From Paracoccaceae bacterium (GTDB lineage: Bacteria; Pseudomonadota; Alphaproteobacteria; Rhodobacterales; Rhodobacteraceae), in assembly GCA_003550665.1 (NCBI GenBank), contig PUKW01000349.1, forward strand, positions 1-50,379: a stretch of DNA of 50,379 nt, written 5' to 3'. Made by a program: the position numbers and the translations under genes. Shown here in pieces: positions 11,027-13,924 of this stretch. The stretch's first letter is position 1. Each line of letters starts with the position of its first letter. Under the pieces are notes generated by a model that worked only from the letters and a program-made list of their open reading frames with translations, was not told where the DNA came from and ran no database searches.

Positions 11027-11479
11027 GTGAGCACCGAAACCGACCTGATCAAGCTCTATTCGGGCCGCATCCTCGAGCTTGCGGCCGACATTCCGCATGC
11101 CGAGCGGCTCGCGGCCCCGATGGCCAGCGCCAAGCGCCGCTCGCCGCTGTGCGGCTCGACGGTGACGGCGGATGTCACGCTGCGCGACGGCCGCGTCGCG
11201 GAATTCGGCCAGGAGGTGAAGGCCTGCGCGCTCGGGCAGGCGGCGGCGGCGGTGCTCGGTGCGAATATCATCGGGCGCGACCGTTCAGCGATCGCACGGG
11301 CGCGTGATGACCTGCACGCGATGCTCAAGGAGGGCGGCGATGCCCCGGCCCCGCCCTTCGACGGGCTCGAGGTGCTGCTGCCGGCGCGCGACTACAAGAA
11401 TCGCCACGCCTCGATCATGCTCGCCTTCGACGCGACGCTCGAAGCGATCGACGAGGCGGCCAAGGCCGACTGCGCCTGA
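11027..11479 (+). CDS. NifU/IscU-like Fe-S scaffold family protein (alphaproteobacterial type)
   Basis: GTG start; KLYSGRILELA, SPLCGS, KACALGQA, RHASIML. Confidence 0.85.
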   Translation: MSTETDLIKLYSGRILELAADIPHAERLAAPMASAKRRSPLCGSTVTADVTLRDGRVAEFGQEVKACALGQAAAAVLGANIIGRDRSAIARARDDLHAMLKEGGDAPAPPFDGLEVLLPARDYKNRHASIMLAFDATLEAIDEAAKADCA

Positions 11480-11496
11480 ACCGACGGATTGTACTG

Positions 11497-11528
11497 AAAA
11501 GGCCGCCGCACCGGGTCGGCGCGGCGGC
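11497..11528 (-). terminator. Rho-independent terminator for the minus-strand small-ORF transcript
   Basis: Minus strand reads GCCGCCGC-loop-GCGGCGGC-CTTTT (plus strand: AAAA at 11497-11500, arms at 11502-11509 and 11521-11528). Confidence 0.7.
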
Positions 11529-11618
11529 AAGTGGCGTGTCTGAATGTCGGACGGGATGCGCGCGGGACAGGGGCGCATCCCGTGGCGGCGCAACGCCGCC
11601 GTCAGACCGCTGGGCAGA
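11497..11618 (-). ncRNA. Structured 3' UTR, candidate 3'-derived small RNA
   Basis: Hairpins GGCGGCG/CGCCGCC (11584-11600) and ACGGGATGCGC/GCGCATCCCGT (11551-11583, C-rich loop on the minus strand), enclosed by GTCTGA/TCAGAC (11538-11543, 11602-11607), then the terminator. Confidence 0.4.
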
Positions 11619-11741
11619 TCAGAACAGAAGCGGAAGGTGCAGTCCGGCCCAGAGCAGGACCGCAAGCGAGGTCGCGCCGATTGCGTCCTGCAGGAGTGTG
11701 GGCCGCGAACGCGCAATAACGCAGGTTAGTTCGTCGAGCAT
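11619..11741 (-). CDS. 40-aa small hydrophobic (membrane) protein, putatively SOS-regulated; not in the ORF track
   Basis: ATG at 11741 preceded by GGAAGG. Translation MLDELTCVIARSRPTLLQDAIGATSLAVLLWAGLHLPLLF*, with a C-terminal hydrophobic helix. It has its own upstream operator region and downstream terminator. Confidence 0.8.
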   Translation of the reverse strand: MLDELTCVIARSRPTLLQDAIGATSLAVLLWAGLHLPLLF

Positions 11742-11762
11742 TTTCTGGCCTTCCGTTACGGT

Positions 11763-11825
11763 GTTGTTATTTTGTTCTCATATTTCGCCGCGCCGATCAA
11801 GAACTTTTTAAGAACTTACGAGAAC
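11763..11825 (-). promoter_or_regulatory. Alphaproteobacterial LexA (SOS) boxes overlapping a putative promoter
   Basis: GAAC-TTTTTAA-GAAC (11801-11815) is a perfect GAAC-N7-GAAC, i.e. GTTC-N7-GTTC on the minus strand. An extra GAAC lies at 11822-11825 and GTTG-N7-GTTC at 11763-11777. A minus-strand TTGATC (-35-like) abuts the perfect box. Confidence 0.8.
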
Positions 11826-11833
11826 AAACGAGA

Positions 11834-13924
11834 TCACCCCACACGCAGAAGGCGAATTGCCTTGTCGCGCTCCATCAGCCAGAACAGCACCCGCGCGGCC
11901 GCACCGCGCTCGGAGGCGAGCCTGGGGTCGCTTGCGAGCAGGGCGCGCGCATCGCTCTGCGCGAGCGCCATCAGCCCGGTCTGTCGTTCGAGATCGGCCA
12001 CGCGAAACCGCGGCAGCCCCGATTGCGCCGTGCCCATCAGATCCCCGGCGCCGCGAATCGCGAGATCCTCCTCGGCGATGCGAAAGCCGTCCTCGGTTTC
12101 GCGCAGGATCTGCAGGCGCCGCCGGGCCGACTCCGACAGCGGAGGCGCATAAAGCAGCAGGCAGGTCGACTCGGCCGTGCCGCGCCCGACCCGCCCGCGA
12201 AGCTGATGCAGCTGCGCAAGGCCAAAACTCTCGGCCCGCTCGATGACCATGATCGTCGCATTGGGCACATTGACGCCGACCTCGATCACCGTCGTGGCCA
12301 CGAGCACGCCGGTCTCGCCCGCATCGAAGCGTGCCATCGCCGCGTCCTTCTGCGCCGCCGGCATCTGGCCGTGCACCAGATCGACGACGCCCTCGCCGAG
12401 CGCCGCGCGCAGATGCCGAAACCGCGTCTCCGCCGAGGTCAGATCGACACTCTCGCTCTCCTCCACGAGCGGGCAGACCCAGTACGCCTGGCGCCCGGCG
12501 GCGAGCGCGTCGCGCAGATGCGCGACCACCTCCTCGAGCCGCGCCGCCGAAACCAGCGCCGTGCGGATCGGCCGGCGGCCGGGCGGCTTCTCGTCGAGCT
12601 GCGAGACATCCATGTCGCCATACTGCGCCAGCGCGAGGCTGCGCGGGATCGGCGTCGCCGTCATCACGAGCACATCCGCCGCCGCCCCCTTGGCGCCGAG
12701 TTCCATGCGCTGCGCCACCCCGAAACGGTGCTGCTCGTCCACGATCGCGAGGCGCAGATCGGCGAAGGTCACGTCGCGCTGAAAGAGGGAATGGGTGCCG
12801 ACGAGGATCTGCATGGCCCCGGAGGCGAGCGCCTCCAGCTTGGCGGCGCGCGCGGCGCCCTTGTCTTCGCCGGTCAGCAGGTCGAGGCGCACCCCGGCCG
12901 CGTCGGCGAGCGGCGCGAGGCTGTCGTAATGCTGCCGCGCGAGAAGTCCGGTGGGCGCCATGAGCGCGCCCTGCCCGCCCGATTCGACCGCGATCAGCAA
13001 CGCCATCAGCGCCACGAGCGTCTTGCCTGCGCCGACATCGCCCTGCAGCAGCCGGCTCATCCGGGTTCCGGCGGCCATGTCGGCGCTGATCTCTGCGATC
13101 GTGCGCTCCTGCGCGGCGGTAAGAGTAAAATCGAGCGCGTCGAGCACCTTGCGTTGCAGCGCGCCGGTCCCGCGCACGGCCCGCCCGCGCTGTCGGCGCT
13201 GCGCGGCGCGGGCTAGCGCCATGGCGAGCTGATGGGCGAAAAGCTCGTCATAGGCCAGCCGCCGCCGCGCCGGGGCATCGGGCGACAGCGCGGCCATGTC
13301 CTCGGGCGCATGCCCCGCCTTGAGCGCCGCACGCCAGCAGGGCCAGCCCTCGCGCGCCATGAGCGCAGGGTCGATCCATTCCGCCAGGTCCGGCGCGCGG
13401 GCGAGCGCGGCCGCCGCGGCCTTGTGCATCACCCGCTGCGTGACGCCCTCGGTGAGCGGATAGACCGGCTCGAAGCCCGGCAGATCACCGGCCTCCTCGG
13501 GCGGCAGGATATGATCGGGATGCACCATCTGGGCGACGCCGTCGAACAGCTCGAGCCGCCCGGAAACCAGCCGCCGGTGCCCCGTCGGGAGCTGCTCCTG
13601 CAGCCAGGCACCCCGGGCATGGAAAAACACGAGCTCGAAATCGACTTCGGCGTCGGAAACCTGCACGCGATGAGGCCGGCCCTTGGACGCGGCCGGCAGG
13701 TGGCGGCGCACCGCGACTTCGACGGTGACGACGCAGGGCGGCGTGACCTCGCGGATCGTGGCGCGGCGGCTGCGGTCGATCCCCGAATGCGGTAGCGTGA
13801 AGAGCAGATCGCGCGGCGTGGCGATATCGAGCCCGCCAAGGCGCTGCGCCGTGCGCGCACCGATGCCGGGCAGCGTGTCGAGCCCGGCAAAGAGCGCGAA
13901 CAGGATCTCGGGCCGCCCCGCCAC
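11834..13924 (-). CDS. recG: ATP-dependent DNA helicase RecG
   Basis: RRRLAYDEL, LLQGDVGAGKT, DEQHRFG, MTATPIPRSL, QLHQLRGRVGRG, DGFRIAEEDL. Confidence 0.98.
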   Translation of the reverse strand: MAGRPEILFALFAGLDTLPGIGARTAQRLGGLDIATPRDLLFTLPHSGIDRSRRATIREVTPPCVVTVEVAVRRHLPAASKGRPHRVQVSDAEVDFELVFFHARGAWLQEQLPTGHRRLVSGRLELFDGVAQMVHPDHILPPEEAGDLPGFEPVYPLTEGVTQRVMHKAAAAALARAPDLAEWIDPALMAREGWPCWRAALKAGHAPEDMAALSPDAPARRRLAYDELFAHQLAMALARAAQRRQRGRAVRGTGALQRKVLDALDFTLTAAQERTIAEISADMAAGTRMSRLLQGDVGAGKTLVALMALLIAVESGGQGALMAPTGLLARQHYDSLAPLADAAGVRLDLLTGEDKGAARAAKLEALASGAMQILVGTHSLFQRDVTFADLRLAIVDEQHRFGVAQRMELGAKGAAADVLVMTATPIPRSLALAQYGDMDVSQLDEKPPGRRPIRTALVSAARLEEVVAHLRDALAAGRQAYWVCPLVEESESVDLTSAETRFRHLRAALGEGVVDLVHGQMPAAQKDAAMARFDAGETGVLVATTVIEVGVNVPNATIMVIERAESFGLAQLHQLRGRVGRGTAESTCLLLYAPPLSESARRRLQILRETEDGFRIAEEDLAIRGAGDLMGTAQSGLPRFRVADLERQTGLMALAQSDARALLASDPRLASERGAAARVLFWLMERDKAIRLLRVG

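Follow-up and report, generated by a model that had tools for sequence, protein, structure and literature searches.

Behind recG, the DNA analysed here (the window: 50,379 nucleotides of contig PUKW01000349.1 from a Paracoccaceae bacterium, assembly GCA_003550665.1) carries a four-part unit that consists of LexA-type boxes, a 40-codon gene, a folded RNA tail and a terminator (Table 1). On comparative sequence evidence, the 40-codon frame is a real, conserved protein-coding gene under selection, and apparently an undescribed one. It would represent a new peptide family, that of a small membrane effector under SOS control, to which an RNA tail and a phage branch belong; the function we give is a testable guess. 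We see about an even chance that the LexA-repressed peptide binds a membrane partner, most likely in the late divisome, and delays division after DNA damage. An earlier, sequence-only reading of this DNA had noticed the boxes and the frame; to that observation are added here a 3' RNA with a conserved fold and, in prophages, homologues of the peptide.

Table 1. Coordinates of the unit behind recG, its neighbours and the prophage homologues (positions in the window, or in the named locus where a handle is given).
Feature	Position	Strand	Basis or remark
recG	11834..13924	-	NCBIfam RecG above cut-off; fixed upstream neighbour, end of sciP-ctrA-ligA-recG
SufU/NifU-like gene, convergent	11030-11479		SufU-like, score below SufU cut-off; no Pfam hit
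Extra GTTC half-site	11822..11825	-	Sequence; 6 bases before operator 1; spacing conserved
Putative LexA-type operator 1, GTTC-N7-GTTC (GAAC-N7-GAAC on + strand)	11801..11815	-	Abuts -35-like element; box conservation
-35-like hexamer TTGATC (inferred)	11795..11800	-	Column conservation; family consensus TT(T/G)ACA
TGAGAACAA element, extended -10 reading at 17-base spacing (inferred)	11772..11780	-	Column conservation
Putative LexA-type operator 2, GAAC-N7-CAAC, one mismatch (= GTTG-N7-GTTC)	11763..11777	-	Over inferred -10/start site
Shine-Dalgarno-like GGAAGG	11749..11754	-	Sequence; 7 nt before ATG
40-codon gene	11619..11741	-	Family profile, dN/dS, predicted structure
Predicted transmembrane part, residues 20-40, no charged residue	11622..11684	-	Hydropathy
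Structured 3' RNA tail, short form	11496..11618	-	Fold z, motif counts, arm-swap test, compensatory changes, model hit
Unpaired CUGCC in RNA tail	11613-11617	-	
Hairpin with CUGUCCC loop in RNA tail, besides outer stem	11564-11570 (loop)	-	
Intrinsic terminator-like hairpin and U tail	11497..11528	-	Terminator scan (hairpin 11528-11502); conserved in alignment
Prophage homologues	L322:1501-1626, L329:1501-1623, L330:about 1485-1611, L332:1462-1590(-), L334-L343		

The stops of the two convergent genes, at 11479 and 11834, enclose a gap of 354 bp, as the sequence-only reading had given it, and every motif listed there was recovered at the same position, together with the 40-codon frame and its quoted peptide sequence. 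The convergent gene is present, but its description as NifU-like stood less well, the assignment being SufU-like and below the family cut-off; of 17 loci, only 10 have this gene inside the flank that was fetched. There is no U tract after its end on its own strand, so that read-through into the peptide unit is possible. On the other side, ligA, ctrA and sciP in the window each score above the NCBIfam cut-off. The linkage to recG proposed from the single locus is general: recG lies upstream of the peptide gene, on the same strand, in 113 of the 114 loci examined.

A single-sequence query matched 17 of 41 genomes, and the best locus in each of these lies behind recG on the same strand and has a box. 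When the 17 sequences were combined into a profile, 263 of 301 Rhodobacteraceae genomes matched (completeness at least 90%, own genome included), almost always with one copy. Twenty of the 38 unmatched genomes were re-examined, and the end of recG was located in 14; behind it there is a divergent peptide copy in 11 and neither frame nor box in 3. Among the other six, there is one with a candidate copy whose boxes are imperfect and whose flank has no recG match, another has a prophage copy only, and four have no match to the peptide query. In a class-wide sample only members of the family matched, with the exception of 1 of 298 outside genomes (E 0.009, inside a 221-aa frame); the gene is a family-restricted one. 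Second hits at L018 and L331 were rejected as extra copies; both lie inside long unrelated frames. The peptide locus is present in two contig runs; two RNA runs, in which the organism has no reads, gave none on the locus. At L148 the promoter is intact and the peptide stops at 28 residues, possibly a broken copy or an assembly error, and in five variant loci (L020, L050, L058, L063, L119) either extra sequence separates the stop from the RNA tail or recG and the peptide gene stand far apart (267-620 nt), and the parts stay together.

Statistics were drawn from 117 loci (the first 17, the best-scoring profile hits, alternate ones among the hits listed next, and the recG loci; 4 duplicates and 2 weak non-syntenic hits were left out) and, because of how the loci were picked, lean to better-scoring members. 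The frame is found in 114 of the 117, with an ATG start in 114 of 114 and a length of exactly 40 residues in 85. The ratio dN/dS, for which the sequence-only reading had looked to a value below 1, is 0.32 in frame, versus 1.04 and 2.05 in the other frames (113 nearest pairs, 133 distinct 40-codon members). No Pfam or NCBIfam family matches the window peptide, and 104 family members gave scattered weak hits alone (best E 0.004, in 3 members); nor was there a match in PHROGs, PDB sequences or Foldseek, and in the Atlas the neighbours are 40-aa clusters without a name. A search of 1.84 billion cluster representatives gave 541 matches at E 0.001. The term "unannotated" used earlier for this gene is only partly true: no family has been named, but public collections already hold relatives, the 10 named representatives that were looked up all being entered as "hypothetical protein".

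Within 130 nt upstream of the gene, 112 of 114 loci have a perfect GTTC-N7-GTTC or GAAC-N7-GAAC (0.78 expected from shuffles), whereas the 130 nt after the stop, used as control, hold one perfect box, in 1 of 114 loci; the box seen in the window is thus a conserved feature. The elements stand in a fixed order: GTTC-N6-GTTC-N7-GTTC, TT(T/G)ACA, TGAGAACAAA, and a second site of the form GAAC-N7-(G/C/T)AAC. A site of the operator 2 type, with at most one mismatch, is found in 110 of 114 loci, the extra GTTC half-site at 6-base spacing in 94-104 of 111 loci per base, and the TGAGAACAA element in 95-106 of 111 loci per base. The third GAAC reported at 11822 is therefore present, but its distance from the next half-site is 6 and not 7 bases. 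A Shine-Dalgarno-like word (loose pattern) occurs in 183 of 194 loci.

Judged from this arrangement, the boxes would be LexA-type operators over a -35 and an extended -10. GTTCN7GTTC is given as the Caulobacter LexA consensus in excerpts of PMC12700426, and the same box is found at lexA in the present genome, in agreement with the earlier naming of GTTC-N7-GTTC as the alphaproteobacterial LexA box. According to the same excerpts, about 97% of Caulobacter SOS promoters carry a single box, so that the multiple boxes here suggest a tightly held gene. Operator 2 scores 24.6 bits with a matrix trained on sidA promoters, and this matrix ranks the peptide promoter first in its own genome, a rank that is partly circular because the 44 training sites, from another family, were picked by the GAAC-N7 pattern. 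The own genome (3.15 Mb) has 32 perfect boxes, of which 6 have an AT-rich spacer, including the peptide promoter and one upstream of lexA; LexA itself scores above cut-off and its gene has a GAAC-N7-GAAC of its own. When the promoter pattern alone was scanned over species genomes, at least 120 stretches were found, 80 of them with flanks, in named Rhodobacteraceae genera and alphaproteobacteria. The peptide lies downstream in all 80 flanked loci, shortened in one, and recG upstream in 78. Elsewhere in the own genome, an identical strong LexA-type box with identical flanks is present on two contigs (G000:C296:2809 and G000:C313:94), in one case just after a SulA/ImuA-like gene at the contig end.

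The peptide has a basic amphipathic N-terminal helix, D19-x-x-G22, a hydrophobic helix and L34-x-L-P37. Among 133 members, four residues hardly vary, namely D19 (131), G22 (132), L34 (131) and P37 (131); K6, R11 and T15 occur often, and residues 2-13 are amphipathic. The hydrophobic C-terminus of about 20 residues proposed earlier is upheld by a best 19-residue Kyte-Doolittle window of 1.72 from residue 21 (family median 2.16) and by a structure model (pLDDT 89.9) with helices at 2-11 and 13-39; the model has no structural match. Based on hydropathy and this model, the peptide is predicted to be a small single-pass membrane protein. Net charge after residue 19 is 0 in 131 of 133 members, and the helix moment is 0.28. 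A hydrophobic helix that varies except at a few fixed residues would fit partner binding better than bulk membrane damage.

Behind the stop codon there is a structured RNA. Short motifs recur among 194 tails: 95 contain CTGCCTGCG (0.4 expected), 136 contain TGTCCC (21 expected) and 96 contain TGCCTGT (10 expected), almost never on the opposite strand, and these C/U motifs are predicted to be unpaired (0.75-0.87 versus 0.40). When arms were swapped between loci, the outer stem was more stable with both arms from the same locus in 129 of 137 loci (-21.9 versus -14.7 kcal/mol; control 66 of 137), and the same holds for the sequences flanking the UGUCCY loop in 95 of 116. In 18 similar loci, 16 of 34 pairs have two-sided changes, above all 500 shuffles, a result that is supportive and carries no probability, since the structure was drawn from the same alignment and the sequences are related. 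A wide alignment of 48 rows gives a predicted consensus fold for the terminator alone. The tail of the window has a fold z of -5.3, terminator included. Its strand was assigned by the terminator because pairing does not fix it (GU 16 versus AC 13; z is lower for the sense strand in 30 of 43, and raw energy is in favour of antisense).

An RNA model built from 18 other loci matched 48 of 66 other sources, and none of 4 sidA loci or 3 peptide-less loci. Its best hit in the own genome is 11496-11621, which is weak (E 0.016, missed under stricter filters) because the window holds a short form of the tail. Hits in 7 of 139 genomes from other families look like plain terminators and lack boxes, and the tail has no Rfam match. 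Conserved structure and seed-like loops that end in a terminator, as in 3'-UTR-derived sRNAs, are present at the level of sequence, and the tail would most likely be a processed or protein-bound regulatory RNA.

Four peptide copies away from recG were found through second or off-site matches. Their neighbours are cI-like repressor, Cro/Ner-like, ParB-like and other PHROGs genes, a layout that we take to be that of Mu-like prophages. With a query of this type, 12 of 301 genomes matched, 10 in a prophage setting (one not extracted in frame), 1 behind recG and 1 left unassigned. The prophage homologues keep D-x-x-G and the hydrophobic helix, their stop mostly overlaps the next gene, and they are without RNA tail and, except for one match in one locus, without box. 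All 10 lack the C-terminal L-x-L-P, and they may do another job. Relationship to the host family is indicated by a profile probability of 96.5 for ten prophage peptides (E 7.7e-10), with a score of 42, where FtsW windows reached at most 17 and shuffles at most 12. The repressor-divergent operon holds phrog_7669, phrog_13335, phrog_35777 and a ParB-like gene; the prophage peptides themselves belong to no PHROGs family. The host-type query had no match in phage or plasmid records, and the prophage-type query gave weak hits alone in phage records (E 0.04-0.3), in two roseophages. One is gene 31 of vB_DshS-R5C (L345:1444-1578; E 0.04), a 44-codon hypothetical gene in a run of small genes; the other is in phage CRP-114, where there is no annotation.

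In the mechanism that we favour, LexA would sit on both operators, covering -35 and -10, and RecA-triggered cleavage of LexA would release an mRNA of about 270-330 nt with a short leader. The peptide would insert with its basic amphipathic helix on the cytoplasmic face, and D19, G22, L34 and P37 might form the face that binds the partner. The partner, FtsW, FtsI or FtsN, is guessed by analogy with SidA, and analogy alone ties the peptide to FtsW, as there is no homology to SidA; the result would be a division brake as SidA is in Caulobacter, from an unrelated family. Prophage homologues beside cI-like, Cro/Ner-like and ParB-like genes probably count in favour of such a brake. Against it count the 3 of 14 re-examined genomes that are without the unit behind recG and, as far as the predicted model goes, the missing structural match. 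Mutants of lexA in Rhodobacter capsulatus have reportedly been studied; if they do not filament, a potent division block would be doubtful.

It is somewhat unlikely that the SOS-induced peptide binds a membrane protein outside the divisome, such as a CckA-CtrA pathway sensor kinase, a membrane protease, or a component of phage entry or DNA uptake. The same anatomy and conservation would fit such a partner, and the prophage homologues could serve exclusion or lysis-lysogeny control. The position at the end of sciP-ctrA-ligA-recG points in this direction, as does the overlap of LexA and CtrA networks in Rhodobacteraceae that is described in parts of PMC6473078. CtrA-like half-sites (GTTAA/TTAAC) are present upstream in 101 of 194 loci versus 48 expected, a modest excess over a control that is a single-base shuffle, and often fall in the -35/-10 spacer or the leader, but a full CtrA box is found in only 3 of 194. 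Beyond position, the link to CtrA cell-cycle control drawn in the sequence-only reading thus receives no support, the gene having its own promoter.

A type I toxin of the TisB/DinQ kind, which would depolarise the membrane and be held down by an RNA, had been offered as the other option and is now disfavoured; we regard it as improbable. TisB, too, is a small hydrophobic protein under LexA control (excerpts of PMC13159721), a structured RNA adjoins the gene, and predicted folds frequently pair the region from Shine-Dalgarno to ATG (mean unpaired 0.34). For the window, the fold predicted for the full mRNA pairs the Shine-Dalgarno region 11749-11755 with the His-Leu-Pro codons 11632-11638 at the end of the frame. 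But the inferred leader, with a median of 28 nt over 136 loci, leaves no room for a standby site, and recG ends at a median of 110 nt upstream, too close for a divergent antitoxin to fit in between, although a convergent antisense RNA is conceivable. There is no co-variation between leader and tail, only 58 of 136 loci pairing better with their own partner, and a search for an antitoxin beyond the terminator brought up recurring words from the adjacent coding gene alone. The helix is uncharged and of low hydrophobic moment, there is no Pfam or NCBIfam toxin hit, and the gene is near-core and mostly present once per genome, a spread that contrasts with the generally narrow range of type I systems (excerpts of PMC13159721).

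Alternatively, the 3' RNA might be the main product, an SOS-induced small RNA with several C/U loop seeds, and the peptide secondary, which appears quite improbable. The enrichment of CTGCCTGCG and TGTCCC as unpaired motifs, the arm-swap result and the two-sided changes are consistent with it, and 3'-UTR-derived sRNAs are known in Rhodobacteraceae (parts of PMC8625941). But the protein is under clear selection, and prophages keep the peptide, whose stop the next gene usually overlaps. Around the start codons of 1,111 crude gene calls, sequences complementary to the loop motifs show no enrichment, and the limits of the wide alignment and of the strand assignment given above also weigh against it. 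It is very unlikely that a regulator other than LexA acts at the boxes, or that the gene, perhaps read through from recG, does not respond to DNA damage. In favour of this stand the predicted nature of the LexA sites and a simple scan that sees no canonical sigma-70 promoter at the gene in the window; against it, the boxes have the exact alphaproteobacterial consensus (excerpts of PMC12700426), recur at lexA in this genome and are kept in all but two loci.

A peptide that delays division by binding a membrane partner thus remains the preferred explanation. A wider version, which we think unlikely, is a dual-function SOS transcript: the LexA-released mRNA would give both the division brake and a multi-loop regulatory RNA, and Mu-like prophages would carry a LexA-independent peptide that arrests the host at induction.

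A full-text literature search, with most subscription papers outside its scope, found no paper on a recG-linked peptide gene and no described SOS division inhibitor for Rhodobacteraceae. The gene table of D. shibae (PMC6473078) has ctrA-ligA-recG and then a 399-bp gap without a gene. The searched passages of PMC5546546, PMC4809877 and PMC8116508 make no mention of the peptide gene, and neither does the main text on R. pomeroyi. In the published sRNA table of R. capsulatus no row names recG or its tag, and among the published R. sphaeroides sRNAs examined none is near a rough position estimate extrapolated from tags. Rhodobacteraceae include abundant marine roseobacters and several model organisms, and the peptide is a candidate for their brake on division after DNA damage, the unit being a single, sharply defined one. 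Should the peptide block division, the checkpoint problem would have been solved here independently, and the divisome could be probed in a new way. Hosts and phages would then share a checkpoint gene family, as shown by the homologues in prophages, and with a LexA-controlled 3' RNA the SOS response would gain an RNA arm, which is a rarity.

Several known systems resemble parts of the unit. As in SorX, UdsB and UdsC/RSP_7527 of Rhodobacter sphaeroides, a structured RNA runs from stop codon to terminator behind a small gene. RSP_7527/UdsC differs in its start sequence and its RpoHII promoter, in contrast to a LexA-type promoter and no Rfam match here, and identity with it was rejected, as it is another gene with another start sequence (parts of PMC9779115, PMC8625941 and PMC6238624).

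With TisB/IstR-1 and DinQ/AgrB of E. coli the peptide gene shares LexA-type control of a small hydrophobic protein, in the case of DinQ as in that of TisB. Such toxins have an amphipathic helix with a charged face; the peptide gene has neither a long leader nor a charged face, no antitoxin was found for it, and it is near-core. Phage early operons keep small host-arresting genes beside the repressor, such as lambda and Mu kil. The prophage homologues would resemble these in being short membrane peptides in a repressor-divergent operon; they differ in having no PHROGs family.

The closest parallel is SidA, a 29-aa LexA-controlled inner-membrane inhibitor of FtsW in Caulobacter (parts of PMC4211646). 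The SidA model (NF033228) has no hit in the own genome and does match in Caulobacter. A SulA-model hit in the own genome is sub-threshold, in a gene that is presumably imuA; no SOS division inhibitor of those two kinds was thus found here. Homology to SidA, suggested by eye from the acidic residue before the helix, was rejected: the profile-profile probability is about 0.7 (0.68), within controls, and cross-HMM scores are at most 3 bits, within shuffled and FtsW-window controls. The prophage clade was also rejected as a bridge to SidA (profile probability 1.0). The claim of the sequence-only reading that the peptide has no evident similarity to SidA, TisB or DinQ is in keeping with these scores and with the lack of a toxin family hit. 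SidA-family loci were collected from 34 matching genomes among 41 of one family. The sidA-family genes (L276-L305) are mostly followed closely by one long coding gene, which we take to be dnaE, and some genomes are below the model cut-off.

The two families differ in length (29-31 aa versus 40 here) and in motif (FVW versus D-x-x-G and L-x-L-P here), and there is no detectable homology; sidA loci have no recG in the flank, mostly have a coding gene close behind, and are without RNA tail. What they have in common is a small single-helix membrane protein (predicted here) with a basic N-terminus and an acidic residue before the helix and, at the level of sequence, a LexA-type multi-box promoter with a short leader.
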